This document shows positions 3,822-21,592 of a DNA stretch of 40,824 nt, in pieces (within the stretch, counting starts at the first letter, position 1; every line of letters begins with the position of its first letter). The notes under the pieces were generated by a model. The model did no database searches. It had not been told where the DNA came from and saw only the letters and a list, made by a program, of their open reading frames with translations. The translations under genes and the position numbers were made by a program. The stretch is from a virus. Its lineage: Duplodnaviria; Caudoviricetes. The stretch covers positions 1 through 40,824 of IMG/VR virus record IMGVR_UViG_3300046050_000043; one strand, written 5' to 3'.

Positions 3822-4021
3822 TGTGTAGGGTCCCGACCATCGACGACGCCACCGAGGACGACGGGGTGGGCGCCTGCAAAACCGAAGGCTGCACCCGCTC
3901 CGCAGACTTCCCGCGCTGTCGGCCCTGCCAGCGCGCCTGGAATGCCGGACACGACCACGCGCAGGACCGGGTCGAGAAGCGGCTGCAACGTCTGGTTCGG
4001 GGAGGCTACGATGCCGAGTGA
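3821..4021 (+). CDS. Small Cys-rich protein
   Basis: TGATG coupling; CKTEGC...CRPC. Confidence 0.6.
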   Translation: MCRVPTIDDATEDDGVGACKTEGCTRSADFPRCRPCQRAWNAGHDHAQDRVEKRLQRLVRGGYDAE

Positions 4022-4682
4022 CGTGACGGTGCCGGTGACGCACTGGCTGTGGCACAACGCTGAGGAACCCACGCACGACGACGTCACCAATCACGCCGCG
4101 ACGTGCGAGATGTGCGGCCGCCCCGACGAGGAGACCGCGAAGGCGTGGCACGTGCAAAGCAGCTGCTTCAGCGACCACGACCAAGCCACCGGCCCCCCGA
4201 CCGGGCGGATTTGCCGGGCCTGCACGCACGCGATGAAGACGGACGCCTACCGGCAACAGTGCTGGCTCGCCACCCCCACCCAAACCCGGTTCCTCGAAAC
4301 CGAAGGCCAGATGCAACGCGTCCGCGGCATCCTCGAGGACGTGCCCAGCGAGCCGTTCGCGTTCTTCGTCACGACGAACTTCGTCAAGCACGGCAGCTAC
4401 AAGATGGAGCCCAACCCGCCCAACCCCGACCCCATCCGCGTCTTCTACAACGCCACCCACCTCGAACTGCCCCGCACCGCCATCAACGAGCTCCTCCCGC
4501 GCCTCGACGCGGCCTACGAGCACTTTTCCAAGAAGGCGCTCCGCACGGGCGACTACCGCCCGAGCGCGATCCAAGACTACGGCCTGCGAGCCTGGAAACA
4601 GCTCGACCGCGAACTCGACGAGTATCGCGGGAGTGCCGCGTACGATTTCCTCGTCAAGCTCTGCCGAGACCAGGAGTCCTAA
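4011..4682 (+). CDS. csf1: Type IV CRISPR-Cas large subunit Csf1 (Cas8-like)
   Basis: CEMCG...FSDHD...ICRAC zinc motif and EPFAFFVTTNFVKH segment; first gene of the csf operon; GGAGG RBS before ATG 4011. Confidence 0.85.
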   Translation: MPSDVTVPVTHWLWHNAEEPTHDDVTNHAATCEMCGRPDEETAKAWHVQSSCFSDHDQATGPPTGRICRACTHAMKTDAYRQQCWLATPTQTRFLETEGQMQRVRGILEDVPSEPFAFFVTTNFVKHGSYKMEPNPPNPDPIRVFYNATHLELPRTAINELLPRLDAAYEHFSKKALRTGDYRPSAIQDYGLRAWKQLDRELDEYRGSAAYDFLVKLCRDQES

Positions 4683-4685
4683 CCC

Positions 4686-5030
4686 ATGCCTACCGACACG
4701 ATCGACGTCACCGACACCGAGCGAACCGCCGCCCGCTTGCTGCGCGCCGTCTGGAAACAAATTGACTTCGACCAAGTCGACACCGGCCGCGACATGACCA
4801 GCGAGTTCACCAGTCGTGCGCAAGCGGCCGCGAACGAACCCAACCTGAAACGCTTCCTGCAAACGCTCGCCCGCAAAATGGGCGTGCGCGGCCTCACCCA
4901 AGACCCCGACCTCTTGGAGGCGCTACAAACGGGCAACGAGGCTGAGGTGTTGGACAAGACCCGGAACGAGACCATGTTCCTGGTCTTGCTCATGCAGGAG
5001 GGCGGCGTCGACCAGGAGGTGCTCTATTAA
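4686..5030 (+). CDS. cas11: Type IV-B small subunit Cas11 (Csf4-like)
   Basis: 114 aa, predicted helical, located between csf1 and csf2 as in IV-B loci. Confidence 0.75.
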   Translation: MPTDTIDVTDTERTAARLLRAVWKQIDFDQVDTGRDMTSEFTSRAQAAANEPNLKRFLQTLARKMGVRGLTQDPDLLEALQTGNEAEVLDKTRNETMFLVLLMQEGGVDQEVLY

Positions 5031-5887
5031 TGCCACCCAGCCGCCAAGCCACCGTCCTCGAGGTCCAATCCCCCCTCCACCACGGGAGCGACGAGAACAC
5101 GGGGGTGGACAACACGTTCCGCCGCGCGAAACACGTCCACCCGGAGAAGGGCGCGATCGAGCTGCCGGTCGTGAGCGGGAACACGATTCGCCACACGTTG
5201 CGCGCCGCGCTCAGCACGCACCTGCTCCAAGCGGTGGGGCTGTACGAGGAGGACGAGGTCCCGTTGAACGTGTACTACGTGCTGTACAGCGGCGGCGCCC
5301 TGAAGAAGGGCGCGAGTACGCGGTTCGTGGAAATCGCGACCCGGCGCGATGTGCGCGACATGCTCCCCCACGTAAGCCTCCTCGGCACGGCCCTCAAGGG
5401 GGGCATGATGGAGGGCAAGCTGCAGATCGGGCACGCCGTCCCCTACACCGAACGCAGCCAACCCCTCCTCTACCCCAGCGTGGATCAGGAGCCGGGCCTG
5501 TCGACGCACCACGAAGCCCTGGACTGGTACTACCAGACGCGGAGCAAGGACGGGGAGAAGGAAGAGCAGGCTGAGCAGGTGGACGCGGATGGGGACCCGC
5601 ACCAGATGAAGTACCAGTACGAGGTGCTCGCCCCCGGCACGCCGCTGCACCACTGGACCGCGATCGACACCGACACGCAACGCGAGCACGACGCCTGGGC
5701 GAAAGCCCACCAACTCCTCCACGACAACGCCACCACGCTCGGCGGCAAGGAGGGCGTGGGGTTCGGCCAGGTCACCTGGCCCTACACGTACCCGGACGGT
5801 GACGCCAATCGGTACGAGGACTACGTCGAGGACAACGCGGAGGACATCCGCGCGTTCCTGTTGAACGAGTTGGCGGACCTCGCCTAA
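5030..5887 (+). CDS. csf2: Type IV Cas7-family RAMP backbone Csf2
   Basis: SPLHHG, LPVVSGNTIRHTLR, LYSGGAL, SLLG, GKLQIG, QMKYQYEVLAPGT and Gly-rich loop LGGKEGVGFG. Confidence 0.93.
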   Translation: MPPSRQATVLEVQSPLHHGSDENTGVDNTFRRAKHVHPEKGAIELPVVSGNTIRHTLRAALSTHLLQAVGLYEEDEVPLNVYYVLYSGGALKKGASTRFVEIATRRDVRDMLPHVSLLGTALKGGMMEGKLQIGHAVPYTERSQPLLYPSVDQEPGLSTHHEALDWYYQTRSKDGEKEEQAEQVDADGDPHQMKYQYEVLAPGTPLHHWTAIDTDTQREHDAWAKAHQLLHDNATTLGGKEGVGFGQVTWPYTYPDGDANRYEDYVEDNAEDIRAFLLNELADLA

Positions 5888-5890
5888 GCC

Positions 5891-6637
5891 ATGGACCGGG
5901 AACACGTCCAAGACCATCTCGACGCCTGGCGCGAAACCCACCATGACCCGGACCGGTTTGAGCCGGTGCGCGTCACGGCGGACCTGGCCGGCCCGGTCAG
6001 CCTCTCCAGCCCCGGCCTCCACCTGGACAGCTTGCTCGCCTACGGCGTGATGCGGACCGTGCTCGGCGACGATCTCCGCAACCTGCCCGACACCGTCACC
6101 CCCCCATTCCGTACCCCCATCCCCGTCCAGCGTGAACACATCGGGGATGCGTGGGTGTACGAGGCCACCGTGGCCACGCTGGAGGACCACGAGGGCACGA
6201 GCGTCGCGTACTGGCGCAAGCGCTACGACGAAACGCACCACCACGTGATCGAGGAGCGCAAGAACGTGGACACGGCCGGCGGGAAGTACAAGTCGTGGAA
6301 CCATCCGCTCAAGCTCGACCACGCTGACCAAGCCACGTGGCACGCTCGTGGTGACCCCGGCCTCATCCAACGCCTGCTGTCCCGCTGGGTGACGAGCATC
6401 GGGAAAAAACGCGCGCACGGCTGGGGCCAAGTCCGGGACTGGCGCCTCACCCGCGTCGACCAAGCCCCGATCGTGGACGACGAGGGCCGGGCTCGCCGGG
6501 TGCTGCCGCACGAACCCGGGCACCTCGAGCACGGGACCGGGGACGCGGTGAAGTTGGGGACTCGGCCGCCGTACTGGCACCACGAGCACCAACGCGCCGC
6601 GATCCCGCCCGGCGAACCCGTGAGTGTGATCGCGTGA
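5891..6637 (+). CDS. csf3: Type IV Cas5-family RAMP Csf3
   Basis: LHLDSLLA, WRKR, GKYK, WHARGD, Gly loop SIGKKRAHGWGQV and C-terminal RPPYW. Confidence 0.9.
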   Translation: MDREHVQDHLDAWRETHHDPDRFEPVRVTADLAGPVSLSSPGLHLDSLLAYGVMRTVLGDDLRNLPDTVTPPFRTPIPVQREHIGDAWVYEATVATLEDHEGTSVAYWRKRYDETHHHVIEERKNVDTAGGKYKSWNHPLKLDHADQATWHARGDPGLIQRLLSRWVTSIGKKRAHGWGQVRDWRLTRVDQAPIVDDEGRARRVLPHEPGHLEHGTGDAVKLGTRPPYWHHEHQRAAIPPGEPVSVIA

Positions 6638-6741
6638 GGTTCGACCGCCCCTACTGGGTCACCCCCCACCGGGTGGACCCGGACCCGCATGCCTACCACG
6701 GCATCCAGGAAACGCCCCCATCCAGCGAGGCCGACCCATGA
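6634..6741 (+). CDS. 35-aa micro-ORF between csf3 and cysH (MRFDRPYWVTPHRVDPDPHAYHGIQETPPSSEADP)
   Basis: Exactly fills the gap, with GTGA and ATGA 4-nt overlaps; GTGAT RBS-like motif upstream. Confidence 0.55.
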   Translation: MRFDRPYWVTPHRVDPDPHAYHGIQETPPSSEADP

Positions 6742-7484
6742 CGGAACCCATCTACCAACGCCGGGACCACCTCCTCGCCCAAACAAGCGAGCACCAAGAC
6801 AAGGTCAACCGCGCCAACGCACTCCTCCAAGACCACGTCCGCGACGCCGAGCAGGCCTACCTCGCCTGGAGCACCGGCAAAGACAGCACCGTGCTCCTCC
6901 ACCTCTGCCACCAGCTCGACCTCGACATCGAGGCGATCTACTATGACGCCGACGCCAAACTCCCCGGTACCACGGACTACATGGACCACGTCCGCGACGC
7001 CTACGACGTCCCCGTCCGTGTCGTGGAGACCGAGCCCATCATGGACGTGTATGAACGCGCCGGCGGCCCCCAAGCCGACGGCATCGAGCACGCAACCATG
7101 AGGGCCACCGTGTGGCGACCCGTGCGCCGCCTGGCCCGGGAGGGCTACGACCTCGGGATCGTGGGCTTGCGGGCCGAGGAGAGCAACCGTCGTGAGCAAC
7201 GGCTCAACGAGCACGGCCACGTGACCACGCACGTCGACGGCCAAACCACGCTCTACCCGCTCGCCGACTGGACGACCCAGGACGTGTGGGCCTACCATGC
7301 CCACCACCAGGTCCCCGTGCATCCCGCGTACGAGCACACCGCGTACCTCGACCGCGACGAGATCCGCACCAGCTACTGGTGCGGCGAAAGCGGCGTCCAG
7401 TACGGGCGCTGGTACTGGCTCAAACAGAACTACCCCCGCCTGTTCAACCGGTTCCGTGAGCGGTTCCCGGATGTGATCGCGTGA
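6738..7484 (+). CDS. cysH: Type IV-B-associated CysH-like (PAPS reductase family, PP-loop) protein
   Basis: WSTGKDSTVLLHL PP-loop, GLRAEESNRR, PLADWTTQDVWAY, PVHPAY; follows csf3. Confidence 0.9.
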   Translation: MTEPIYQRRDHLLAQTSEHQDKVNRANALLQDHVRDAEQAYLAWSTGKDSTVLLHLCHQLDLDIEAIYYDADAKLPGTTDYMDHVRDAYDVPVRVVETEPIMDVYERAGGPQADGIEHATMRATVWRPVRRLAREGYDLGIVGLRAEESNRREQRLNEHGHVTTHVDGQTTLYPLADWTTQDVWAYHAHHQVPVHPAYEHTAYLDRDEIRTSYWCGESGVQYGRWYWLKQNYPRLFNRFRERFPDVIA

Positions 7485-8691: not shown

Positions 8692-8943
8692 ATGCCCCGC
8701 GACCCACCCACCCCGCTCGTTGTCCACACCGCGCACGCTTGCTGGGCGTTCCACCACATCCTCACCGCGCAACGCCACGCCGGCAGTCACCACAGCGGGC
8801 TCGCCGTCAACGCCGGCTACCTAGCCCCACCCATCCCCACCCCGACCGTCGACGAGGAGGACCCCGTCATCAAGCCAGGCAGCGGAACCATCGAGAAGAG
8901 CTACGATGAGCCTCGTGACGACGAGGAGCGCCGTCGACCATGA
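8692..8943 (+). CDS. Hypothetical protein
   Basis: Stop overlaps the next gene's ATG. Confidence 0.45.
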   Translation: MPRDPPTPLVVHTAHACWAFHHILTAQRHAGSHHSGLAVNAGYLAPPIPTPTVDEEDPVIKPGSGTIEKSYDEPRDDEERRRP

Positions 8944-9548
8944 CCACCGACTGGCCCCAGCTCCCCGACTCCCGCCCCGTCGCCTCGACCATGCACGGCG
9001 AGCCCTGCGGAACCTGCCTAGACCGTGGGGACTACTGTCACCACCACGGACCCGAGGACGCACCCGGGGACCAGTTTCGAGACGTTTCACAGGCCAGTGT
9101 CGGAAGCTACAAGACAATCCTCCCCGACGCGGACAAGCCCCTCGAGGCGTACACGGCCACCGAGCGACGGGCCTACCTCCTGGATCGCATCGTGGAGGCC
9201 GGACACCCGGACCTGGTGAGCCGGCAAGCGATGGGGGAACGGTTCGGCGTCTCCCCGCAGCAGGTCAGCAAGGATATTCGCAACCTGGCGCTGGATCTCC
9301 GGGACGGGGCGACCGAGGACTTCGAGCTGTTGTTCGAGACCGTGATCCGGAAGGGCGTCAAGGAGAAAATGCGGGACGGGGACTTGGAGGACGCGTTGAC
9401 GTTCTTGCGCGAATGGAAGTCTTGGCTGTTCCGGTCGGGACGGCGTGAGGAGGCCGCGGACAAGCACGAGCTCACCGACGGCGAGGGCGGTCCAGCGCTT
9501 ATGATGCTGGACCGCATCCGGGACATCGACGAGGACAACGATGGTTGA
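8940..9548 (+). CDS. terS: Probable terminase small subunit (Cys/His knuckle plus HTH)
   Basis: GEPC...CHHHG, HTH SRQAMGERFGVSPQQVSKDI, terS-like tail DKHELTDGEGGP; upstream of terL. Confidence 0.65.
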   Translation: MTTDWPQLPDSRPVASTMHGEPCGTCLDRGDYCHHHGPEDAPGDQFRDVSQASVGSYKTILPDADKPLEAYTATERRAYLLDRIVEAGHPDLVSRQAMGERFGVSPQQVSKDIRNLALDLRDGATEDFELLFETVIRKGVKEKMRDGDLEDALTFLREWKSWLFRSGRREEAADKHELTDGEGGPALMMLDRIRDIDEDNDG

Positions 9549-10473: not shown

Positions 10474-11964
10474 ATGCGTGCGGCCAAGGATGGGATGCAC
10501 GAACACGCCGACGCCTTCCCCCACCTCCACGCATCCCTCCCCAGCCAGCAACGCCGCGAACAACTCGCCCACGAGTTCCTCGCCGCCGCCGACAACCTCA
10601 AAACCTGGTACGACAACCACGAGACCCGGAAACTCTGCCAGGCGCTGTTCGACGAGACGCCCGCGCCCGGCCAGGTCGACATTATCGAGCCCATCGCGTA
10701 CGGCACGCACGACCGCGTCGCCATCAGCGCGATGACCCGCTACGGGAAAACCTGGAGCCTCGCGCTCGCGCTCGGGCTCCGCTTCATCTTCGACGCCAGC
10801 GACCTGCTGGTGCCGGTGGTCGCGGCCAAGCTCGGGCAGGCGAAAAAGATGCGTCGCTACTTCGCGGACATCGTCAACACCTGCCCCCTGCTGGCCGCGA
10901 ACCTCCTGATGAGTCCCAGCGGCGTCGAGCGCCTGAAAAAGGAGGTGTCGAAGAAGCGGCTCACGTTCCGCGACGGGAAGGAGTTGGTCGTGCACACCGC
11001 GCACGGGAAGGCGGCCGCCATCATGGGCGAGGGGGGCGACATCGTCGTGATCGACGAGTCGGCGCTCATCGACACCGAGACCTACCAGGACCGGGTGCGA
11101 CGCATGGCCGGCGACGATCCCGAGAACGCGCAAATCGTGGAACTGTCGAACCCGTGGAGCCGGCAGACCGAGTTCCACGACTCCTGGACGAGCCCCCGCT
11201 ACCACACGGTGCAGATCGGCTGGCAGCAAGCCCTCCAGGAGGGCCGCACGACGCGGGACTGGATCACCGAGCAGCGCGAACGCCTGGACCCGATCAGTTT
11301 CCAGGTCCAGTACGCCAGCGAGTTCCCGGACGACGTGGAGGACGCCTTGTACAAGTGGGCGTGGATCCAGCACGCGGTCCGGCGCACGACGCGGGACAAG
11401 AACCTCAGCGCGGCCACCCCGCAGTGGGGGCTGGACGTGGCCGAGGGCGGCGCCGACCTGAACGTGCTCACCCGGGCCACGCTTGGGCCCGGGTGGACGG
11501 TGATCCATGACCAGTGGAGCTGGAGCGAGGAAAACACCATGACCACCGTTCGCGAAACCGAGAACCACGTCCCCCGAGAGGACCCGATCGGAGTGGACGC
11601 GATCGGGATCGGGAAACCCGTCAGCGACCGCCTCGACGAGAAAGGCTACAACGTGCAACGCTTCAAAGCCTCCCGCTCAAAGAGCGTGGGGGACGGGTTC
11701 CAGAACCTGAAAGCCGAGGCGCACTGGCATGTGCGCGACCTGCTCGAGAAAGGCGCCACGACCGGGGAAGCCTGGATCAGCCTGCCCGAGAACAGTGACC
11801 TGCTCGGCAACCTGCAACGCGCCCGGTACGACGTTCGGAACGGGACGACGCGCGTCCACTACGAGAACGAGGACAACGACAGCCCCGACTACGCGGACAG
11901 CCTGGTGATTGCTGCCTGCCGCGACTATCACACGAGCACGGGCAGCGTGGGCGCCTATGTCTAA
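10474..11964 (+). CDS. terL: Terminase large subunit
   Basis: Walker A-like TRYGKT, Walker B IVVIDES, LSNP, nuclease motifs WGLDVAEGGAD, VDAIGIG and SPDYADS. Confidence 0.95.
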   Translation: MRAAKDGMHEHADAFPHLHASLPSQQRREQLAHEFLAAADNLKTWYDNHETRKLCQALFDETPAPGQVDIIEPIAYGTHDRVAISAMTRYGKTWSLALALGLRFIFDASDLLVPVVAAKLGQAKKMRRYFADIVNTCPLLAANLLMSPSGVERLKKEVSKKRLTFRDGKELVVHTAHGKAAAIMGEGGDIVVIDESALIDTETYQDRVRRMAGDDPENAQIVELSNPWSRQTEFHDSWTSPRYHTVQIGWQQALQEGRTTRDWITEQRERLDPISFQVQYASEFPDDVEDALYKWAWIQHAVRRTTRDKNLSAATPQWGLDVAEGGADLNVLTRATLGPGWTVIHDQWSWSEENTMTTVRETENHVPREDPIGVDAIGIGKPVSDRLDEKGYNVQRFKASRSKSVGDGFQNLKAEAHWHVRDLLEKGATTGEAWISLPENSDLLGNLQRARYDVRNGTTRVHYENEDNDSPDYADSLVIAACRDYHTSTGSVGAYV

Positions 11965-12673
11965 CCCGCCCGACGAGCCGGTTCGACCGGTGAAGCCGGT
12001 CGGGTGCCGGCGCAGCTGCACCAACTACGCGACGCGCACCCTGCTCGACAACTGGCCTCAGGCGATGGTGTGGGGTCGCGACGAGGGTCCCTACAAGCAC
12101 GCGGCCCCGCAACGCATCCCCGCCCGGTTCCTGGTGTGCGTGAAAAACCCGGCCAAGTGGTTGGTGAGTTACGCGGACTACGAGGCCCGGTTCCTCCAAA
12201 TGCCGAGTGACCAGGTGTTGTCCCAGTTGTACCACCGGGAGCGCGTCGAGACCCTGATCGAGGCCTATGTGACCAAGCACCACGCCTGGCTCCACGACGA
12301 CCTCGCCCCTCACACGGGCGCGGTCCTCCGCCACGAAGACGCCTGCCAACGCGAACACGAGGCTTGGCGGGACGTCGCGGATGCCCTCGACCTTGCGTGG
12401 CCGCCGCCCGCGCACGGCGCGTACCGCCCGGTGCGGGAACGCGTGGCGCCGTCGAACACGGGGCGCAAGCAACCGGTCGCCTACCAAGCTCCCGACTACG
12501 AGACCCACACCTACCTCGCCCGGTTGTCCAGCACGCAACGGGATGCGATCCTGGCCGCGTTGGAACGGGCTGGCGCGACGGGGCACGGCGGCGTGCTCGA
12601 CCAGTTAGGGTACCCGCCCCGCCTCGACGCCCTCCTCGACAAGGCCGTCGACGCGACTGGAGTAGGACCGTAA
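11957..12673 (+). CDS. PAPS-dependent sulfotransferase-family protein
   Basis: 5'-PSB-like GCRRSCTNY, KH, 3'-PB-like VCVKNPAKWLVS, LRHED (cf. RYED) and C-terminal LGY; ATG 11957 overlaps the terL end. Confidence 0.72.
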   Translation: MSNPPDEPVRPVKPVGCRRSCTNYATRTLLDNWPQAMVWGRDEGPYKHAAPQRIPARFLVCVKNPAKWLVSYADYEARFLQMPSDQVLSQLYHRERVETLIEAYVTKHHAWLHDDLAPHTGAVLRHEDACQREHEAWRDVADALDLAWPPPAHGAYRPVRERVAPSNTGRKQPVAYQAPDYETHTYLARLSSTQRDAILAALERAGATGHGGVLDQLGYPPRLDALLDKAVDATGVGP

Positions 12674-12707
12674 CGATTGTCATTATTCGCCGCCCAGCTC
12701 GGACTGC
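12674..12707 (+). promoter_or_regulatory. Putative archaeal promoter for a leaderless portal/head transcript
   Basis: AT-rich CATTATT at 12681-12687, about 24 nt before ATG 12708; no RBS. Confidence 0.45.
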
Positions 12708-14996
12708 ATGGGTTCCGAGCCTGAGGCTCCCCGCTCGCCGAACGGGCAGGCCCACGGCTCGGGTCCCGTCAAGCAGCGCACGTACAGCGCCGTGATTCGC
12801 GCCCAAGACACGGCCCAGTTCGCCCAAGCCCTCGCCACGGACGGCGCCCAAGCCGCCGTCGACCAGTTCAGCCACGACGCCCACCCCCAAGCGAAGCGGG
12901 GCGGGAACCTCAGCGACCACCCCGCCCGCGACCCACGACGCTTCGGGCGCAGCGGCGCCTACCCACGCAGCGGGGACGCCAGTGAGCCCCTCGTCGAGCG
13001 CCTGTACGACGAGGTGGGCGTGTACGGGGCCGTCGTCGACAGCTGGATCAACGATACCTGGGACGACGGGTGGACGCTCGACACCGACAACGACGCCTGG
13101 GTCGAGCAGGTGCGCGAGATCGAGGACCGGCACGGGTTCAAGCAACTCGTGCGGCGCGCCGACCGCCGCCAGTTCACCTACGAGGGCGGCTACAGCCTGT
13201 TGCACGCCCGACTCAAGGACGCGACCGGTGACGCCGCCCAACCCCCCACCGGGGACGTCGAGGTTCTGGAACTGCAGGTCATCAACGCGGCCATGGTCGA
13301 GGACTACCAGGTGGAGACCGAGGACACCGAAACCTTGGGCGACATCACGATGTGGGAGGTCGACTTCGGGCTCCCCGACCAGCCCGCGACCCGGGTCCAC
13401 CCGGACCGCGTGCTGCACTTGCGCCAGCAGCCCGATGACGACGACCCCGCGACCGGGACGCCGTGGGCCAAGCGCGTGATGGATGACACGCTCGGGTACG
13501 AGAACACGAAGTGGGCCGTGTTCGAGGCCTACTTCCAACGCGCCAGCCCGTTCCTCGTCGCCGAAGTCCACGAGGACCTCGACCTGGACGACGAGGACAT
13601 CGACAAGGACGAGGTGCTCGACGCCGTCGACGAGATCGCGAACGCGAACACGCAGCGCATCCTCGCCGAGGGCTTCAAGCTGAAACCGTTGAACCAGGCC
13701 AGCGAGCTGCCGGACGGGTCGATCCCGTTCGAGGTCGCCCAGCGCTCGATCAGCGTGTCGGCCCGCATCCCGATGCATGAACTGTTCGGGAGCGCGGCCG
13801 GCGAACTCGCCAGCGCACAAGAAGACACGAGTCGGTACCACAAGCGCGTCGGGAAGCGCCGGTCCGAGTACGCGGAGGCGATCCTCGAGGCGTGGTACGA
13901 GCGGTTGGCCGCGTGGGGCCTGACGCCGCCGGTCCCGGATGACTTGACGATCCGGTGGCCGAGCCTGGACGAGCCGGGCACGGAGGAGGTGTTCGCGGCG
14001 GAGAAGAAGCGCGCCGAGAGCCTGGCGCTGTGGCAGGAGAAGGTTGGCCAGGCCCCGCCTGCGCGACTCGTGGACTACGAGGCCGGCACCTACCCCTCAC
14101 CGGACGAGGAGTCGGCGGGGGAGGCCACCGACCACGCCCACGACGACGGGCACGGGCCGGCTGCGGGTCGAGCAGGGAGGTTGGGGGTGACGTTCGTGCC
14201 GGACCGGCACGACGTCCTGCACGCTCACCCCGTGTTCGACTACGACCAACCCCACTCCCACCGCGACGAGGATGGGGAGGACTTGATTCCGGCCCTGAAG
14301 CCGGTGAAGAACCGGTATCAGAACCGGGTCGAGGACGTGTTCCTCAACTGGCAGGACGAGGTCCTGCAGATGTTCCGCGAGCAGGGCGACCTCCCCCCAG
14401 CCCGGGCCGGTCAGGACGCGGCGAGTGCCGACGACGAGGCCGTGCAGGCCCTGCAGGCCTGGGAACCCGACACCAGCCGGCTTGGCGACCTGTTGTACAA
14501 CCTGTTGCAGGAAAGCGGCGAGACCGGCGGCCTGCAATCGTTCCAACAGCTTGGCCTCGAGGACACCTTCCAGTTCGTCGAAGGCAGCACCGAGCTGGAG
14601 GCGTTCGAGAGCATCGCGGACGCCACCGCCGACAGCCAGGCCGAACAGCTCACCACGCAGATCCGGCGCGAGGTCGCCGAGAGCCTCGCCGAAGAGGAGC
14701 AACTCAGCCAGACCCGGGACCGCGTGCTCGACGTGTTCGACACCAAGTTCAGCCAAGACAAGGCCGACCTCATCGCGCGCACCGAAAGCATGCGCGGGTA
14801 CAACATGGGCGCCAAGAACGCCCTGCGGCAAGCCGGCCAAGACCAGGCGCGGTTCAACGCGTTCAACGGCGCCTGCCCGATCTGCGGGCCCCTAGACGAG
14901 ACGACGGTGAAGCTGGGCGGCGACAACATTCCGCCGTTGCACCCCCGCTGCCGGTGCACGATCACGATCCTCACCGACGAGGTGACCCCGTCATGA
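12708..14996 (+). CDS. Portal protein fused to a C-terminal MuF (SPP1 gp7-like) domain
   Basis: Portal-like VHPDRVLH, ARIPMHELFG...GEL and IRWPSL; MuF motifs IARTE...N and CPIC...PPLHPRCRC. Confidence 0.88.
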   Translation: MGSEPEAPRSPNGQAHGSGPVKQRTYSAVIRAQDTAQFAQALATDGAQAAVDQFSHDAHPQAKRGGNLSDHPARDPRRFGRSGAYPRSGDASEPLVERLYDEVGVYGAVVDSWINDTWDDGWTLDTDNDAWVEQVREIEDRHGFKQLVRRADRRQFTYEGGYSLLHARLKDATGDAAQPPTGDVEVLELQVINAAMVEDYQVETEDTETLGDITMWEVDFGLPDQPATRVHPDRVLHLRQQPDDDDPATGTPWAKRVMDDTLGYENTKWAVFEAYFQRASPFLVAEVHEDLDLDDEDIDKDEVLDAVDEIANANTQRILAEGFKLKPLNQASELPDGSIPFEVAQRSISVSARIPMHELFGSAAGELASAQEDTSRYHKRVGKRRSEYAEAILEAWYERLAAWGLTPPVPDDLTIRWPSLDEPGTEEVFAAEKKRAESLALWQEKVGQAPPARLVDYEAGTYPSPDEESAGEATDHAHDDGHGPAAGRAGRLGVTFVPDRHDVLHAHPVFDYDQPHSHRDEDGEDLIPALKPVKNRYQNRVEDVFLNWQDEVLQMFREQGDLPPARAGQDAASADDEAVQALQAWEPDTSRLGDLLYNLLQESGETGGLQSFQQLGLEDTFQFVEGSTELEAFESIADATADSQAEQLTTQIRREVAESLAEEEQLSQTRDRVLDVFDTKFSQDKADLIARTESMRGYNMGAKNALRQAGQDQARFNAFNGACPICGPLDETTVKLGGDNIPPLHPRCRCTITILTDEVTPS

Positions 14997-16453
14997 CCCG
15001 CCACGACGAGTCCCTGCCGATCACCGAGCAGGAGAACCGGCTGGTCGTCACCCTCCTCACGAGTGACGAGCTCGACACGGTGGACGAGACGCTCGTCCCG
15101 ATCAGTGCCGAGAAGGGCATCCAGGCCCGCATGGGCACGGACCCGGACGGGACCAAGCGTCTGGCCGAGTTGCACTTCCTCACCGGGCAGGACTGGACGC
15201 GCGAGGCGGTCGCGTCCTTCCTCGCGGACAACGGCCTCGACGCAGCCACGCAGGACGCCGACCTGTGGTTTGAGCGCTCCAGCATCGACGCCGACGAGGC
15301 GCGGGTCGAGGAAACCGAGGACTGGTGGATCATCCGCGACAACGTCGTCACGCAAAACGGTGTCTACGACGGACTGCACCGGCCGCCCGACGTGATGGAG
15401 GACAACTGGCGCCTGTACGACGGGACGCCCGTCACGCACGGCCACCCCACCAGTATCGTGCAAAGCCTCGACGAGGTTGCCGGCAAGACCGTGAACACGC
15501 GCCTGGACCGCGTCACGGGCGACGACACGCACCCCTCGATCGTGGAGGTGCGCGTCATCGCGGACTACAAGCTCGCCAAGCACACCGACGTGGACGGGCT
15601 CCGCACGACCGACGCCTTGGTTGAGCAGAACCGCGACACCGTGCAACGCCTCCGCGACGGCGACGGCGTCGACAACAGTCAAGGCTACGTGTTGCAAGCC
15701 CGACGCGACGCGGGCAGCCTTGAGGGCGAGGCCTACGAGCAGGTGGCCGAGGAGTGGATCCCCAACCACATCGCCCTCCTGCTCGACCGGGAGGGCGCCT
15801 GCACGTGGGAGGACGGCTGCGGCGTCGCCCGCCTCGCGCTGGACTGCGCGCTCGGCACCCGATTCCAGGACGGCACCTGTTTCCCTTCACCCCCGGACCC
15901 GCCCACCGACGGCGGCGGGCCTGGACACCCCCGGTCAGCGACACCTACGACCCCAGGAGACCCCCTCATGAGTTGCGACGGAGACTGCGAGGCAGCCACG
16001 CGGCTCGACCACCTCGAGGATGAGGTGCAACGAGCCCGGGCTGCGCTCGATCGACAAGGTGAACGGTTGGACATCGAGCTCGACGCCGAGCTCGACTTGG
16101 GCGCGGCCGCGGACAAGGTGGCCACGCACACGGAACCCGCTCTCGACCGTCTCGCGGACTACCGCGAGGCCGAGCAGGAGCGCAAGGAAGAACTGGCGGA
16201 AGCGTGCGCGGACCACCGGCTCGAACTGGATGACGAGGCCGACAGGGACGAGCTTGTCACGTTCTACCTGGACAAGTTCGGCAGCGTGGACGCGCTCGAG
16301 GAGCATGCCAGCGCGATCGGCGCCCTCGCCACGCTTGACGAGGCGGACACGAGCGCGGATCCCAGCAGCCTCCGCGCCGCCAGCCAGCACGACCACGACG
16401 ACGAGGCGTCCTCGGGGCCGGGCGTGCCGGACAAGGCCATGTGGGAGGCCTAA
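14993..16453 (+). CDS. Prohead protease (DUF2213-like) with C-terminal scaffold-like region
   Basis: GVY, PVTHGHP, SQGY, PNHIALL...GAC...GCG; ATG 14993 overlaps the portal stop; acidic helical C-terminus. Confidence 0.8.
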   Translation: MTRHDESLPITEQENRLVVTLLTSDELDTVDETLVPISAEKGIQARMGTDPDGTKRLAELHFLTGQDWTREAVASFLADNGLDAATQDADLWFERSSIDADEARVEETEDWWIIRDNVVTQNGVYDGLHRPPDVMEDNWRLYDGTPVTHGHPTSIVQSLDEVAGKTVNTRLDRVTGDDTHPSIVEVRVIADYKLAKHTDVDGLRTTDALVEQNRDTVQRLRDGDGVDNSQGYVLQARRDAGSLEGEAYEQVAEEWIPNHIALLLDREGACTWEDGCGVARLALDCALGTRFQDGTCFPSPPDPPTDGGGPGHPRSATPTTPGDPLMSCDGDCEAATRLDHLEDEVQRARAALDRQGERLDIELDAELDLGAAADKVATHTEPALDRLADYREAEQERKEELAEACADHRLELDDEADRDELVTFYLDKFGSVDALEEHASAIGALATLDEADTSADPSSLRAASQHDHDDEASSGPGVPDKAMWEA

Positions 16454-16456
16454 CCC

Positions 16457-17140
16457 GTGTTCGGCGTCACGCTCACGCTTGCCCTCGTCGTCCTCGGCCT
16501 GTGCTTGGCTGCCCGACGCGGCCTGGCCCGCGTCTACGAGCGGCATCCGCTGGCCGCGTGCGTGCTCATGATGGCGGGAGCGCCCACGCGCGATGCGAGC
16601 CAGAACTTCCAGACGGCGAACGACGAGCACCGCGTCACGATGGGCACCTACCACGTCGGCCCCAACAACGCCAACGTTCGATCTCAGCGCTTCGTGAAGC
16701 GCGACGGGGACGACGGGAAGGTCACCGTGACCGCGGCCGGGGACCTCCCCATCGGCTACCTGACCCACGGCCAGGTCGACGACAGCACGCCGTCGACGTG
16801 GGGGCCGGGCGAGGTGAAGACCGGCGAGGACTTCGCCACGGACGACAAGGTGAAGGTCGAACGCGGGCAAGGCTGGATGGTGCCCGTCACGATCGAGGAC
16901 AGCACGGGCACGGTGAACGCCGGCGACGCGCTCACCACCGCTGCCAACGGGAAGGTGAAGGGCGCGGACGCGCTCAGCGTCGCCGTCCCGAACGGGACGA
17001 CGAACGTTCAGTCCACCAGCGCGCAACCCGACCTGACGGAAAGCGGCGGCCTCCCGCCGCAACCGATCGTCGCTTACGCCAACGAGACCGCTGACCCCGG
17101 AGGCGGCGATGTCGAGATCATGGCCGTGCTGGCGATCTAA
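16457..17140 (+). CDS. Head decoration/cement-like protein (alternative start 16568)
   Basis: Directly before the capsid gene; beta-rich, VNAGDALTTAANGKV, ends EIMAVLAI. Confidence 0.65.
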   Translation: MFGVTLTLALVVLGLCLAARRGLARVYERHPLAACVLMMAGAPTRDASQNFQTANDEHRVTMGTYHVGPNNANVRSQRFVKRDGDDGKVTVTAAGDLPIGYLTHGQVDDSTPSTWGPGEVKTGEDFATDDKVKVERGQGWMVPVTIEDSTGTVNAGDALTTAANGKVKGADALSVAVPNGTTNVQSTSAQPDLTESGGLPPQPIVAYANETADPGGGDVEIMAVLAI

Positions 17141-17154
17141 GAGGTGAGTCACGC

Positions 17155-18087
17155 ATGAAGACCTACCAACAACTTCTCCACGACCGCGAACAACGAGCCG
17201 GGCACGACGCCCAGGTCGGGCACGACGACGGACCGTTGCCCGAGGAGGCGTGGAAGGTCATTCTTCCCCAGCTCGAGCGGTCGTTCAACACGATCCGGAC
17301 CGCGCGCGCCGCCTTCCAGCCCATCATCAGCACCGAGATGTCGGGATTGGGCATCACGGAGATCAAGGAGTACGAGATGCAGGACCAGGCGGGCGCCGTC
17401 GCCACGTTCGACTTCGAGCCGCAAGTCAGCGACGCGCCCGACCTGTCCGACGGGATCGTGCGACGCATCGGTGTCCAGAAGGACACCAAGCTCCCGTTCC
17501 AGGTCAACGAGAGCCTGGACCAGACCGACTTGCTCGGCCTGCAGGACTTCGCGATGGAGAACGGCGAAGCCGTCGCCGTGCTCGAGGACAACATCGCCTA
17601 CACCGGGCACAGTGACTTCGACTTCGGCGGCTTCCTGAGCCCCTCCTCCGCGACAAGCAGCGTCGGGACCGAGTGGAGCGGCAACCCGACGAACGTGTAC
17701 GACGACGTGAAGGCGATGAAGCACGACCTGCGGGACCAAGAGATCCCGCCGGACAACGTGCAGAAAGTCCTGTTCGTCCACAGCACGGAAGCCGAGGAGG
17801 GCCTCGAGCAGCGGTGGAGCAGTGACAACGGGGAAACGCCGGCCGAGTCCCTCATCGACGCGGGCCACATCGACGGCTACGTCACCACGGACCGCCAGAC
17901 GACGGGCGAGGCGACGTTGATCCCGATGACGCCGCGCGTGCTGCGCTGGCACCTGCTCGTCGACCAGGACAGCGAGTCCTACGCGATGGGGCAAAGCCAG
18001 CGCTCCCCGATGGCGCTGGGGACGTGGAGCGCCAGCATCTACGACGTGAAAAAGCCCGCCGCGATCATCAAGAAGACGGGGCTGTGA
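17155..18087 (+). CDS. Major capsid protein (HK97 fold, encapsulin/linocin-like)
   Basis: Position and size (310 aa); AVAVLEDNIAYTG...GFL, W...NVYDDVKAM, terminal KPAAIIKKTGL; GAGGTGA RBS. Confidence 0.85.
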   Translation: MKTYQQLLHDREQRAGHDAQVGHDDGPLPEEAWKVILPQLERSFNTIRTARAAFQPIISTEMSGLGITEIKEYEMQDQAGAVATFDFEPQVSDAPDLSDGIVRRIGVQKDTKLPFQVNESLDQTDLLGLQDFAMENGEAVAVLEDNIAYTGHSDFDFGGFLSPSSATSSVGTEWSGNPTNVYDDVKAMKHDLRDQEIPPDNVQKVLFVHSTEAEEGLEQRWSSDNGETPAESLIDAGHIDGYVTTDRQTTGEATLIPMTPRVLRWHLLVDQDSESYAMGQSQRSPMALGTWSASIYDVKKPAAIIKKTGL

Positions 18088-18093
18088 TTCGTC

Positions 18094-18561
18094 GTGCCGG
18101 ACACGTATCGCGTCCAGGACGGCACGTTGAAGCTCGCGGACGGGTCCAAGCACCCACCCGGGAGCCTCCTCACCCGTGAGGAGTTGACCGACCGCGAGCT
18201 CGACGTGTTCCTTGACGGGGACTACCTGCGCCCCTACGATCCCAGCCAGGACGAGCAGGATCTCGAAACGCAGGCGCGCCAGGACGAGCGCGCCACGATC
18301 GCGGACCAGCTACGCGACACGGGCCTCGAGCAGGCCGCCATCGTCGTCGAGGAGGGCGAGGTGCCCGACGACGCGCAGGCGTCGGTCCAGCACGACATCC
18401 CCCCCAACGACGACGCGGACGAGGATGGGGAGGGGGCGGGTTGGCGCAGCGACTATCACGAGGCGCAGGCGAAGGCCAGCGAGCTCGGCGTCGACGCGCA
18501 GGGCACACACGAGGAACTCGTGCAGCGCATCGAGACCCAGCTCGAGGAGACCCCAGAATGA
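18094..18561 (+). CDS. Head-region protein with C-terminal HeH/SAP-like motif
   Basis: YHEAQAKASELGVDAQGTHEELVQRI; follows the capsid gene. Confidence 0.65.
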   Translation: MPDTYRVQDGTLKLADGSKHPPGSLLTREELTDRELDVFLDGDYLRPYDPSQDEQDLETQARQDERATIADQLRDTGLEQAAIVVEEGEVPDDAQASVQHDIPPNDDADEDGEGAGWRSDYHEAQAKASELGVDAQGTHEELVQRIETQLEETPE

Positions 18562-18749
18562 GCATCAAGGACACGGTCTTGCTGACGAAGCGGTACAAGA
18601 TCCTGCTGACGCTGATCGCGGTCTCGGTGTTGACCGTGGTCGCGATGGCGTTCGGGTTCAGCGAGATCGCCTACATGGCCACCGGCGGCCTCGTCGGCTA
18701 TCTCGGCAAGATGAACGGCCACACCGACCCCTCCCAGGACGGAGACTGA
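18558..18749 (+). CDS. Small membrane protein (holin-like candidate)
   Basis: ATGA overlap; two hydrophobic segments in 63 aa. Confidence 0.55.
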   Translation: MSIKDTVLLTKRYKILLTLIAVSVLTVVAMAFGFSEIAYMATGGLVGYLGKMNGHTDPSQDGD

Positions 18750-18754
18750 GACCC

Positions 18755-19120
18755 GTGCCGGAAGCCATCACGGCCCAGGACGTCCGCGACGCGATCGAGA
18801 CCGTGCCCAACATGAGTCTCCCCAGCGGCGTCACCGACGACCTGCTCAGGGACCAGATCCGGCGCAAGACCGGGCGCGTCCTCACCAAGATGGGCCGTGA
18901 TGGGGTGCCCACGAGCGAGCCCGCGCAGGGCGCGGTCGAGGACGCCGTCCTCCAGCTCGTGGTGAACCAGATCGTCAGCTGGACCGACCCCAGCGACGCC
19001 GACCTGCAAGAAGCCATCCAAACCGCCGACGAAACCGCCATCGGCCCAACCGATGCTGAGCAGGCCGCCGAAACGGAAGGCTCGGGGAACGCGGGCCTCC
19101 ACGTCACCGGAGGGACCTAA
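18755..19120 (+). CDS. Probable head-tail adaptor
   Basis: GTG 18755; ITAQDVRDAI start and helical pattern typical of gp6-like adaptors; position. Confidence 0.55.
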   Translation: MPEAITAQDVRDAIETVPNMSLPSGVTDDLLRDQIRRKTGRVLTKMGRDGVPTSEPAQGAVEDAVLQLVVNQIVSWTDPSDADLQEAIQTADETAIGPTDAEQAAETEGSGNAGLHVTGGT

Positions 19121-19122
19121 CC

Positions 19123-19593
19123 ATGCCACGCGACGGGATGGATGTCGACGTGGACGCCAGCGAGTTCCAATCGTTTGCTCGCCAGGCGCCGCGCGAGGCC
19201 GAAAAGGTCGCGGTCACGTACTACCGGAAGGGCAGCCAAGTCGTGCGCGACCTCCAGGTCAGTGAAGCCACGGATCGGTTCGGGGTCGAAACCGAGGAGT
19301 CCCGGATGCGAACCGTCGACCCCTCCCGCCCCACCGGCCGGTACGCGGCCAGCGTCCAGACCAGCATCGAGGAGGACCACGCCGACACCGGACCCCGCGT
19401 CCCCTACAAGCACTGGGTGGAGAAGGGCAGCCAGGCGCCGGCTGCCCGGATCCCGTCCACGCACGTCGATGCGGCGTTCATCGGGCACCGCCCCGTCACG
19501 CGCGCCACCCGCCAAGCTCGGGACCCGCTCGAACGCTTGCTCGCCAAGGAACTCGAGCAGGGCCTGCGCCGATCCACAGGAGGATTGGGCTGA
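19123..19593 (+). CDS. HK97 gp10-like neck/tail completion protein
   Basis: TGRYAASV...PYKHWVEKGS...GHRPV pattern; position. Confidence 0.65.
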   Translation: MPRDGMDVDVDASEFQSFARQAPREAEKVAVTYYRKGSQVVRDLQVSEATDRFGVETEESRMRTVDPSRPTGRYAASVQTSIEEDHADTGPRVPYKHWVEKGSQAPAARIPSTHVDAAFIGHRPVTRATRQARDPLERLLAKELEQGLRRSTGGLG

Positions 19594-19594
19594 C

Positions 19595-20041
19595 ATGGCG
19601 GCCAAACCCACGCTCGAAGGCCTGGTGAAGACCCAGCTCACCGCGACGCGGGACGAGGTTCACGCCAACCTGGATGCGCTGGGGTTGAACCACGTGGCTG
19701 TCGGGCGCGAGCAGGGCGACTGGACGCACCCAGCCAGTTTCGTGTACGCCGGTCCCGGCGACGCGCGCATCCTGGAGGAGCAGCGGGCGGGCGTGAGGAT
19801 CTGGCAGGTGCCCGTCGCGGTCACCGTCGCCGTGCTCGACCCGGAAGGCAGCGCCGACGACACGGCCGTCGGGAAAGCCGAGGCCGTCGCCGAGCACTTG
19901 GCCGGTCAGGGCCTCGGCGAGGCGCACAAGACCAAGCCCGTCGGGCTCAGCGTGGGCGGGGCCGGCCAGGAGAACCCCAGCGCCTGGGAGACGTTGGCTG
20001 CCTGCCACCTCCAGTACCAGGTCAAGGTCGCGAGGACGTGA
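19595..20041 (+). CDS. Probable tail terminator
   Basis: ATG 19595 with GGAGG RBS; size and position before the tail tube. Confidence 0.55.
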   Translation: MAAKPTLEGLVKTQLTATRDEVHANLDALGLNHVAVGREQGDWTHPASFVYAGPGDARILEEQRAGVRIWQVPVAVTVAVLDPEGSADDTAVGKAEAVAEHLAGQGLGEAHKTKPVGLSVGGAGQENPSAWETLAACHLQYQVKVART

Positions 20042-20045
20042 TGCA

Positions 20046-20357
20046 GTGACGAAGACACGCATCGAGAAAACACGCGGCGCCCCCGTGCTCGTGTACGAGG
20101 GCGAGCACTATCTGTTCAGCGAGGGCCGCATCACGAGTGACGAGGAGGCGACCCTCACGGTGGACCACGACACCGCGGTCAGGCTTGTCGAGGCGCACGG
20201 CGAGGTGCGCATCGACGAGGTGCACGTTGTGCCCACGCTCGAGGACGCCAGAGAGGACTATCACGCCGCGCAACAGCTCGCCCGGTACCATGACCTCTCC
20301 GCGCAGGGCACGCACGAGGAACTCCTCGAGCGCCTCACGAACGAGATGAGAGACTAG
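20046..20357 (+). CDS. Small protein with the same HeH/SAP-like C-terminal motif
   Basis: DYHAAQQLARYHDLSAQGTHEELLERL. Confidence 0.65.
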   Translation: MTKTRIEKTRGAPVLVYEGEHYLFSEGRITSDEEATLTVDHDTAVRLVEAHGEVRIDEVHVVPTLEDAREDYHAAQQLARYHDLSAQGTHEELLERLTNEMRD

Positions 20358-20370
20358 GAGTTGACAACCC

Positions 20371-20835
20371 ATGGTTACGCGACTCACCGGCGACTACATC
20401 GAGCTGCACAAGATCACGGACCTCGGCTCGACGAGCGAGAGCGAGACCAAGGTCGGCGAGACGAAGGGCGACGTCGTGCTCCCGACCGACGTCACCGAGG
20501 CCTCGGTGAACGAGCACAACAAGAAGCGCCCGAAGACCAAGCCGGTTCGCTTCGACGACGCGATCGAGTTCGAGGGCACCGTCACGAGCACGTTGCAAGC
20601 CCTCACCGATCTCGGCATCATCGACAGCAACAACGTCCTGCAAGGCTTCAACCCGACCGAGGTCGAGGCCCTCCGCTTGAAAGTGTTCGAGAACGAGGGC
20701 GACACGAGCAGCAGCCAGGAGTGGGACGTGGAGGAGGTCTACGTCAAGCGCGGCGACATCACGTTCCCCACCGAGGATTTCGCTGACTGGACGGCCGACG
20801 GCACCGTGAACGGCAAGATCAAGAAGGTCGCCTAA
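20371..20835 (+). CDS. Probable major tail tube protein
   Basis: Beta-rich, 154 aa, directly upstream of the chaperone and tape measure genes. Confidence 0.7.
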   Translation: MVTRLTGDYIELHKITDLGSTSESETKVGETKGDVVLPTDVTEASVNEHNKKRPKTKPVRFDDAIEFEGTVTSTLQALTDLGIIDSNNVLQGFNPTEVEALRLKVFENEGDTSSSQEWDVEEVYVKRGDITFPTEDFADWTADGTVNGKIKKVA

Positions 20836-20852
20836 CACCCGGGTCAGGCTCC

Positions 20853-21479
20853 ATGACTTCACCCAGGAACGCATCCGCCAACGAGGCCACCCCAGCCGAG
20901 GAACTCGACCCCGAAACCGCCGAACAGATCCAAGACAACCTGGAAGCGGGCGAGACGGAGGGCGACGTGTGGGATGACATTCACGAGCACCAGCAAGAGG
21001 TGCACGGCGAGGACAAGGCCGACCAGGTGTTCCGCGCCCTCCGCCAGGACACCACGCACATCCAGTTGGACGGAGCGATCGAGACCGAGCACGGCGTCCA
21101 GGAGATCAGTGTCGAGCTCGAGGTGTACCGTGTCCCGCTGCAGGGCTTGCTGGACTTCATGGGCGAGTGGCAGAAGCTGCAGGCCTTGGGCGATGTCGAG
21201 GCCATGGACGAGGACGAGCGGCAGCGGATCGAGATCGACGGGCAGAACCCGGAGGCGTTCGCCAGCCGTCTCGCGGAGGACGCCTTCCGGCACGTGGACG
21301 ACCTGCTGGTGAACCCCTACGAGTCCGGGCTCCACAGCCAGCGGTTGCGGCGTGAGGCCTACGGGCTCGAGGTGGCGGCCAACCTCATCATGACGGCGGC
21401 CGACGCGTTCGGCGCCGAGGTGGATGAGGCGGGAAATACGGAGCCTCCCGGGAAGGCCAGGGCCTCGCAGCGCTCTTGA
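20853..21479 (+). CDS. Tail assembly chaperone (G-like)
   Basis: Between tube and tape measure genes; slippery G-GGA-AAT near its end. Confidence 0.75.
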   Translation: MTSPRNASANEATPAEELDPETAEQIQDNLEAGETEGDVWDDIHEHQQEVHGEDKADQVFRALRQDTTHIQLDGAIETEHGVQEISVELEVYRVPLQGLLDFMGEWQKLQALGDVEAMDEDERQRIEIDGQNPEAFASRLAEDAFRHVDDLLVNPYESGLHSQRLRREAYGLEVAANLIMTAADAFGAEVDEAGNTEPPGKARASQRS

Positions 21480-21577
21480 TCGAGGCTGGGTGGACCCTGG
21501 AGGAGTGGATGCGTCGTGACACGCGCGAGCAAGCGTTCTTCGTCAACGCCTGGGCCGAACTGACCAGCGAGGACTAA
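21431..21577 (+). CDS. -1 frameshift extension of the chaperone (GT-like product 20853..21577)
   Basis: In-frame heptamer GGGAAAT at 21431-21437; -1 frame reads YGASREGQGLAALLIEAGWTLEEWMRRDTREQAFFVNAWAELTSED to TAA 21575-21577. Confidence 0.75.
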   Translation, partial: GKYGASREGQGLAALLIEAGWTLEEWMRRDTREQAFFVNAWAELTSED

Positions 21578-21592
21578 CCCGGAGGAACGCCT

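Follow-up and report, generated by a model that had tools for sequence, protein, structure and literature searches.

What does a virus gain from a CRISPR effector operon that shows neither an array nor a cutting enzyme? The question is posed by IMGVR_UViG_3300046050_000043, a 40,824-nt record of a tailed virus; this whole stretch of DNA is called the window below. An intact Cascade-like gene set, csf1-cas11-csf2-csf3, lies there at positions 4011-7484 with a micro open reading frame (ORF) and a cysH-like gene, and without a cutting enzyme in the window. We conclude that this module is almost certainly an effector operon of CRISPR descent, type IV-B, carried by a tailed virus whose host is likely haloarchaeal. 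As to its role, we tentatively prefer the reading that an RNA-bound Cas scaffold delivers a modifying enzyme for counter-defence.

The module is a type IV-B effector operon

A preliminary description, made from the nucleotide letters without database searches, had read this locus as an intact csf1-cas11-csf2-csf3-micro ORF-cysH operon, that is, a type IV-B effector module with a CysH-like gene on a tailed virus. ORF calls, profiles and predicted folds bear out the gene order and support the identity (Table 1). The profile check that it recommended has been run, and all four Cas proteins match type IV models. In PADLOC, Csf1 matches typeIV_Cas8/Csf1 (PDLC01721, E 2.9e-21), Cas11 matches typeIV_Cas11 (PDLC01694, E 2.1e-14), Csf2 typeIV_Cas7 (E 6e-53) and Csf3 typeIV_Cas5 (E 2.1e-40); in NCBIfam, Csf1, Csf2 and Csf3 match TIGR03114 (E 2.9e-4), TIGR03115 (E 8.5e-11) and TIGR03116 (E 4.2e-26). 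These NCBIfam scores all lie under the curated cut-offs, and we take the three proteins to be divergent members of their families.

A profile of Csf1 (13 relatives) matches IV-A Csf1 structures (8rc3_G, E 4e-5), and that of Csf3 matches Csf3 structures (E 3e-21). The AlphaFold2 model of Csf2, made from a 77-row alignment, has a predicted local distance difference test score (pLDDT) of 92, and Foldseek places IV-A Csf2 best by E-value and IV-B 7jhy at higher identity (21%, TMt 0.70). The profile of Csf2 has its best PDB match in 7jhy, the Csf complex of Mycobacterium sp. JS623 (1.5e-46), ahead of IV-C Cas7 11fs (3.4e-44) and IV-A (1.9e-15 and weaker), scores that favour IV-B or IV-C over IV-A. 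A conserved Cas7 RNase site in Csf2 is not supported, the aligned column holding D/E in just 10 of 19 rows (alignment A2, by eye); Asp27 of the window Csf2 aligns with Asp42 of 7JHY, assuming that the chain is numbered from 1.

Several features expected of IV-B are present: csf2, csf3, a small Csf1, a separate cas11 and a cysH-like neighbour that has the PP-motif and is without the catalytic cysteine, in the canonical IV-B arrangement (PMC7038947, PMC12669027). Type IV-A, marked by a DinG helicase, Cas6/Csf5 and an array and by the lack of Cas11, does not fit, with no Helicase_C_2 match in the window and a Cas11 present; nor does type IV-C, which is defined by a Cas10-like HD nuclease: only Csf1 models match the 223-aa large subunit found here.

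Table 1. Features of the window discussed in the text.
Feature	Position	Strand	Remarks
csf1 (Cas8-like large subunit)	4011..4682	+	223 aa, two CxxC pairs
cas11 small subunit	4686..5030	+	114 aa
csf2 (Cas7 backbone)	5030..5887	+	285 aa
csf3 (Cas5)	5891..6637	+	248 aa; G-rich loop, invariant PYW tail (alignment)
micro ORF between csf3 and cysH-like	6634..6741	+	35 codons; no family
cysH-like PP-loop enzyme, CasCysH type	6738..7484	+	248 aa, PF01507
probable terminase small subunit	8940..9548	+	phrog_15023; label inferred from position before large subunit
head-tail virion module	10474..33252	+	PHROGs, Pfam

The CysH-like enzyme lacks the reductase motif

The CysH-like protein matches PF01507 over the Pfam cut-off (E 8.6e-22) and a PHROG labelled 'PAPS reductase' (PAPS, 3'-phosphoadenosine 5'-phosphosulfate), but for none of the 18 NCBIfam models that it matched does it reach the cut-off. 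Its AlphaFold2 model (pLDDT 94) has the fold of PAPS and APS (adenosine 5'-phosphosulfate) reductases, with structural matches to these reductases and CysD, then to TtuA, FAD synthase and TilS. Across 36 aligned rows the PP-loop SxGKDS, the motif GxRxxE and several arginines are invariant (S45, G47, K48, D49, S50, G143, R145, E148 and R152). PAPS and APS reductases carry a C-terminal catalytic cysteine motif, ECG-L/I-H. None of the 36 rows has the tail motif ECG/A-L/I-H; the columns of Cys57 and Cys215 of the window protein hold cysteine in two rows each, and two further columns, where the window protein has none, hold it in 24 rows and 21 rows that belong to a subgroup.

Lacking the cysteine motif and scoring under curated cut-offs, the protein does not qualify as CysH proper. 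Nor does it qualify as one of the phosphorothioation enzymes DndC, SspD or BrxP, whose conserved cysteines serve Fe-S binding and sulfur transfer: it shows partial matches only to them, with no conserved cysteine at the window positions, and a scan of 15 further window ORFs turned up no dnd, ssp or brx partner gene. It is the CasCysH of PMC8175902, a protein predicted there to perform ATP alpha-hydrolysis and AMP transfer, not sulfate reduction or phosphorothioation. Judged from sequence, it looks like an obligate group-transfer enzyme. Its best plasmid matches come from Rhodococcus and Mycobacterium, largely the genera that match Csf2, and in several cases lie in the very records that Csf2 matched. 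Prediction of its complex with Csf1 and Csf3 scored 0.00, which speaks neither for nor against contact.

An enzyme accompanies the Cas core in related loci

Of 1.84 billion cluster representatives, 847 match Csf2 at E<=0.001, and the nearest shares 37% identity with it. Matches occur in 66 of 72,556 plasmid records and, among the 50,697 records of isolated phages, in Skermania phage SPI1 alone. No relatives turned up in viral contigs (Csf2 and haloarchaeal-clade patterns), in genome contigs (haloarchaeal pattern) or in the BFVD fold search. In the Csf2 trees, a quick tree and a FastTree one, both built without IV-A or IV-C references, the window row is a long branch without a supported place that does not join the Natrinema/Halomontanus clade, a position that hints that halophile elements may have acquired IV-B separately.

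We assembled 26 related loci (L002-L027), 16 of them distinct and with the operon visible; L015, L023, L025 and L027 were set aside as duplicates (L025 after a check, the rest because their match data were equal) and L014, L016, L017, L018, L020 and L022 as too short. A PP-loop or radical-SAM (S-adenosylmethionine) enzyme accompanies the Cas core in 15 of the 16. The CysH-like gene stands alone in seven (L004, L006, L007, L010, L011, L012 and L019) and is joined within 5 kb by IbrA-like DUF3440/PAPS-reductase and ParB-domain genes in three (L002, L003 and L005). IbrA-like and ParB genes replace it inside the operon of L009, a radical SAM gene replaces it in four loci (L008, L013, L021 and L026), and only in L024 was no enzyme found. 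The three enzyme types alternate within a single Csf2 clade that has Cas11-Cas7 fusions (Shimodaira-Hasegawa-like support 99, 10 rows). An N6/N4 methyltransferase lies close by in L005, L008 and L009, and a TET-associated glycosyltransferase in L010.

Some of these loci have features of their own. The fusion clade takes in L008, L009, L010, L011, L013, L019, L021, L022 and L026. The Halomontanus and Natrinema plasmids (L002:4794-12039 and L003:4788-11506) follow IV-B with two to three variable genes and then IbrA-like, ParB and CysH-like genes; their shared stretch is 75-81% identical in nucleotides, and L002 has an extra GNAT acetyltransferase between ParB and CysH. The IV-B-like operon without CysH (L024:2050-7651) has a divergent 591-aa ORF upstream that by eye resembles a superfamily 2 helicase. 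On the Thermococcus nautili plasmid NZ_OX281346.1, a gene annotated as Cas6 (L004:6869-7612) is Csf3/Cas5 by similarity to the window's Csf3 (E 1e-19) and has no PF10040 match. The idea that IbrA/IbrB make 6-NcmdA is wrong: PMC13219725 assigns 6-NcmdA to Mom.

The module is coupled and codon-adapted

From csf1 through the gene after cysH the junctions measure +3, -1, +3, -4, -4 and -4 nt, and the module is part of a more extended series of small genes, all in one orientation, that reaches at least from 2951 to 8294. Three ORFs upstream of csf1, the same series holds a RusA-like/Holliday junction resolvase gene (2951-3460; PHROG E 1.3e-5). Aspartate plus glutamate (D+E) make up 15.3% of the module's residues and lysine 3.1%, against 16.1% and 2.8% in the structural genes; GC content at third codon positions (GC3) is 0.89 in both, and codon usage correlates at r = 0.95. 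The equal GC3 and codon usage suggest a long-resident module. The acidic composition that the preliminary description ascribed equally to the module and the viral accessory genes around it is seen relative to the structural genes; the accessory genes themselves reach 21.4% D+E, which leaves the module slightly less acidic than they are. Histidine is at 5.4% in the module and 2.0% in the accessory genes.

The micro ORF (GC3 0.86) overlaps its neighbours by 4 nt at each end, its GTG start overlapping the csf3 stop and its terminal ATGA the cysH start; the junction with cysH, TGTGATCGCGTG, recurs directly after cysH. As the shuffled interval is open in frame 63% of the time, openness by itself is weak proof of coding. 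The micro ORF matches no family in the library scans and no Atlas entry, and has no homolog in the fetched loci. A duplicated Csf3 tail, suggested by the shared PYW, is rejected as an explanation (562 of 1000 shuffles score equally high), nor does its interval look like a structured guide RNA (fold z -0.96 and -0.88); the upstream non-coding stretches likewise show no unusual fold (z -1.01 and -0.56). It is likely a translational relay or a small private peptide, not a conserved part.

No array is found in the window

The preliminary description had also reported that array, cas6, cas1, cas2 and dinG were all missing. For the array and for cas1, cas2 and dinG this stands across the window, with positive controls for the three genes; for cas6 it rests on a weak test. 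We found no CRISPR-like repeat family in the window and no two-repeat mini-array; the mini-array search picked up nothing but repeats of 81-nt period within the tape-measure gene. Rfam gave 0 matches at E<=1, no tRNA was detected, and a tRNA-like stretch near 490-520 proved not to be one. Six-frame searches of the window returned 0 matches to Cas1, Cas2, Cas4 and DinG Helicase_C_2; the corresponding controls were positive in 7, 6, 8 and (DinG C-terminal domain) 10 of 14 genomes. PF10040, for cas6, has no match in the window either, a weak test since it was positive in just 2 of the 14 controls and missed Haloferax volcanii; the absence of cas6 also leans on partial ORF scans in which not all ORFs were set against all libraries. 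Helicases, nucleases and CARF-type receivers were likewise not found in the window. One weak Csx1 match (E 6.5e-4) falls on the coiled-coil part of another window gene, and a Cas4 suspected by eye at 36159-37382 has no PF01930, other Pfam or phage match.

The record is linear and 60% complete by CheckV. A 2,364-nt contig of run X1 overlaps 40366-40824 and adds 1,905 bases, so the genome continues; X1 is possibly the source of the window DNA and hence not independent. Since the record is incomplete and extends by at least 1.9 kb, 'array-less' holds for the window alone. Type IV-B in general usually has neither cas6 nor an array. Positions 1-820 form the largest stretch without a convincing gene and have no tRNA, Rfam or repeat match; since a second contig begins exactly at position 1, this stretch might mark the end of the genome or a break in the assembly.

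Complete haloarchaeal replicons carry the module

Three complete circular replicons of Halobacteria carry the module: NZ_CP135527.1, CP031299.1 and NZ_CP071309.1. Mini-array candidates number 0, 0 and 1, and none is credible, the one candidate being a 22-nt imperfect pair unlike a CRISPR unit. The 141 kb scanned contain no Rfam match, and Cas1, Cas2, Cas4 and DinG are absent from the three replicons. The window shares no conserved non-coding match with them; the best blastn match lies within cysH.

NZ_CP071309.1 (L005, L043 and L044) is plasmid unnamed2 of the cultured Actinarchaeum halophilum YIM 93972, circular and 84.9 kb long, with csf1-cas11-csf2-csf3-cysH at 69669-73201 of the record. 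It encodes a tape measure, baseplate J and virion morphogenesis proteins, and by gene content is a myovirus-like tailed phage-plasmid with IV-B. Like the window, this Halobacteria plasmid shows no array, and it has homologs of the window's tape measure (35%) and terminase-small-like protein (36%). Unlike the window, it is circular, has baseplate J and carries methyltransferase-like, ParB and IbrA-like genes downstream of the module; its Csf2 groups apart from the window Csf2 (FastTree). Its gene row reads IV-B, CysH-like, methyltransferase-like, ParB, IbrA-like, and the plasmid also has Orc1/Cdc6, MCM and three annotated DNA methyltransferases. Its csf2-csf3 gap measures 90 nt and by eye contains a 26-codon ORF.

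The virus probably infects a halophilic archaeon

That the window belongs to an archaeal tailed virus, as the preliminary description had it, is well supported by inference from phage records, an acidic proteome and the capsid cluster. The probable terminase small subunit gene matches 13 phage records, all 13 from haloarchaeal tailed viruses. The virion module comprises a terminase large subunit, a portal-head morphogenesis fusion, scaffold, HK97-fold capsid, neck and tape measure; the capsid has an HK97/encapsulin-type fold, and its top Atlas cluster is 88% Archaea. Across 23 ORFs (one of them read in the wrong frame), D+E reach 17% and lysine 2.7%. CTAG, which haloarchaea avoid, is the most depleted 4-mer palindrome in the window, at 0.48 of expectation, and the window DNA is present in a halite metagenome run, with no RNA dataset listed for the region. 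Against a haloarchaeal host, the terminase large subunit and the portal find their matches in bacterial phages only (22-29%). Relatives of the capsid were found neither in phage records nor in viral contigs (capsid pattern). From these sequences the host is likely to be a halophilic archaeon; Halobacteria are probably the best guess, and another halophilic archaeal lineage is possible.

Elsewhere in the window, two adjacent genes at 35413-37382 resemble by eye those for a single-strand annealing protein and for an exonuclease of the PD-(D/E)xK kind whose tail is a coiled coil; they have no profile or phage match. Paralogous small proteins at 38399-38677 and 38704-39012 have the look of AbrB-type regulators; the pair has strain variants in run X1, and AbrB-like genes flank IV-B in L002, L003 and L005 too. 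The non-coding stretch at 1395-1590 contains palindromic TGTCACA/TGTGACA repeats (about 1420-1440 and 1562-1585), possibly operator sites, ahead of a ribbon-helix-helix-like gene.

What the module may do

In the reading that we consider best, with a probability of about 0.4, the module forms a scaffold on RNA and, in the service of counter-defence, brings a modifying enzyme to its target. The Csf2-Cas11-Csf3-Csf1 complex would likely bind a small RNA, most plausibly a host-made CRISPR RNA (crRNA); it would then engage nucleic acid and, acting jointly with CasCysH, position that enzyme on it. CasCysH, a predicted ATP user, would adenylylate or otherwise modify the bound nucleic acid, presumably viral DNA or RNA, and the modification would help the virus to evade host defence. 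The presence of an enzyme next to the Cas genes in 15 of the 16 related loci favours this delivery, and the alternation of three enzyme types in one clade is more than a pure RNA sponge would need. Also in its favour are the invariant PP-loop without the reductase cysteine motif, the DNA-modifying genes near L005, L008, L009 and L010, and the three haloarchaeal replicons that have the module and no credible array. In published work, IV-B Csf2-Cas11 filaments assemble on heterogeneous RNA of about 55-60 nt (PMC7937560), and array-less IV-C loads host crRNA in trans, binds double-stranded DNA flanked by a protospacer-adjacent motif and allosterically activates its enzyme (PMC13676074).

Several points weigh against enzyme delivery. 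The sample of 16 loci is biased, drawn from one motif pattern, 4 of the 66 plasmid records chosen as archaeal, and one phage record, and the count of 15 stands without a background rate of modification genes in viral genomes. IbrA and ParB we presume to be DNA modifiers, which our searches did not confirm, and no other recognisable modification gene lies beside the module in the window. Two published results speak against a crRNA guide in particular: a co-expressed I-E crRNA, at about 0.12% of the reads, was not enriched in the JS623 complex (PMC7937560), and in most cases where IV-B occurs no other CRISPR system is present (PMC8175902 citing Pinilla-Redondo). Quite improbable, in our estimate, is the bolder version in which IV-B is a programmable nucleic-acid modifier with a swappable enzyme head, loading host crRNAs and masking viral Cascade targets via CasCysH; if true, it would be a guide-stealing shield, host immune memory turned into viral protection.

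Among the alternatives, the module might instead be a sponge, its filament absorbing host crRNAs or other small RNAs and disabling the host's class 1 CRISPR immunity, with CysH ancillary. The viral location and the lack of an array in the window suit this, the JS623 complex assembles on RNA non-specifically (PMC7937560), and the same was suggested for a Methanoperedens virus (bioRxiv 10.1101/2023.08.02.551345). We nevertheless hold it to be unlikely: it leaves unexplained both the enzyme in 15 of 16 loci and the intact Csf1 and Csf3, the missing crRNA enrichment in JS623 tells against it as well (PMC7937560), and it has been judged unlikely given the complexity of the system (PMC7038947). Rather unlikely, too, is interference with borrowed guides, in which a host crRNA is loaded and the DNA of a rival virus or plasmid bound, with superinfection exclusion following from a transcription block or from a CysH-made signal or toxic product. 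Loading of crRNA in trans and the coupling of target binding to an enzyme are established for IV-C (PMC13676074), the Csf2 profile scores IV-C Cas7 nearly as high as IV-B, and Csf1 and Csf3 match DNA-binding IV-A subunits; yet the window shows no helicase, nuclease or CARF-type receiver, and the radical-SAM and IbrA/ParB substitutes suit modification better than signalling.

Could the virus keep a mini-array or guide gene of its own in the unseen part of its genome? The incomplete, continuing record leaves room for one and Fuxivirus supplies a precedent (PMC10848311), but its array is part of the locus, and here neither the 4 kb upstream nor the 33 kb that follow downstream contain one. As 97.8% of IV-B operons are array-free (PMC7937560) and the three complete haloarchaeal replicons show none, we rate this as having only a slim chance. 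The low identity of the nearest Csf2 and its long branch might be taken for the decay of neutral cargo, which is very improbable for genes that are all intact, coupled and codon-adapted and that keep their conserved motifs. Least credible of all, with hardly any weight in our judgement, is the view that cysH encodes a PAPS reductase for auxiliary metabolism and has no connection with the Cas genes: the PF01507 and PHROG matches and the shared fold would allow it, against which stand the sub-threshold NCBIfam scores, the lack of the catalytic cysteine motif and closest plasmid relatives in IV-B-bearing actinobacterial plasmids.

Relation to known systems and significance

The rarity implied by the preliminary description does not hold, as array-less IV-B is in print for the Methanoperedens virus Mp_virus_41kb_42_49_complete (bioRxiv 10.1101/2023.08.02.551345) and mini-array IV-B for Fuxivirus. 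The former is likewise a virus of archaea that carries csf1, cas11, csf2 and csf3 together with a non-canonical cysH and has no array nearby; compared by description only, it differs in its methanotroph host (the window's is a probable halophile) and its complete genome, and the part of its description available to us does not mention a micro ORF. Fuxivirus, of Bathyarchaeia, shares the archaeal viral setting, the same five genes and the lack of an adaptation module, and differs in a two-repeat mini-array and Cas4, neither detected in the window (PMC10848311). The JS623 complex (PDB 7JHY, PMC7937560) has an identical gene set, with Csf2 about 27-30% identical (tblastn), on a plasmid of a bacterial, non-halophilic host. 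Type IV-C of T. onnurineus and P. abyssi shares a Cas7, Cas5 and Cas11 core, a similar Cas7 and the usual freedom from arrays, but is chromosomal and has a Cas10-like HD nuclease as large subunit where the window has its Csf1 and CysH-like protein (PMC13676074). In the literature listings searched, supplements aside, no paper on a haloarchaeal virus with IV-B came up, though such cases may stand in the locus tables of PMC7038947.

The functions that the preliminary description proposed (crRNA sponge, repression and guiding of the PP-loop enzyme) are hypotheses already published (PMC8175902, PMC7937560, PMC7038947), and a 2026 paper still calls IV-B function unexplained (PMC13676074). The present locus contributes one more example, from a probable virus of halophiles and with a divergent Csf2; by itself it leaves the question of function unanswered. 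Its practical value lies in being small and self-contained, with three complete replicons in cultured Halobacteria, one of them a tailed phage-plasmid, for a native readout of guide RNA and modification. Haloarchaea offer genetics and well-studied type I-B systems. Should the enzyme-delivery reading be right, IV-B would be a natural system that writes chemical marks under the guidance of RNA.

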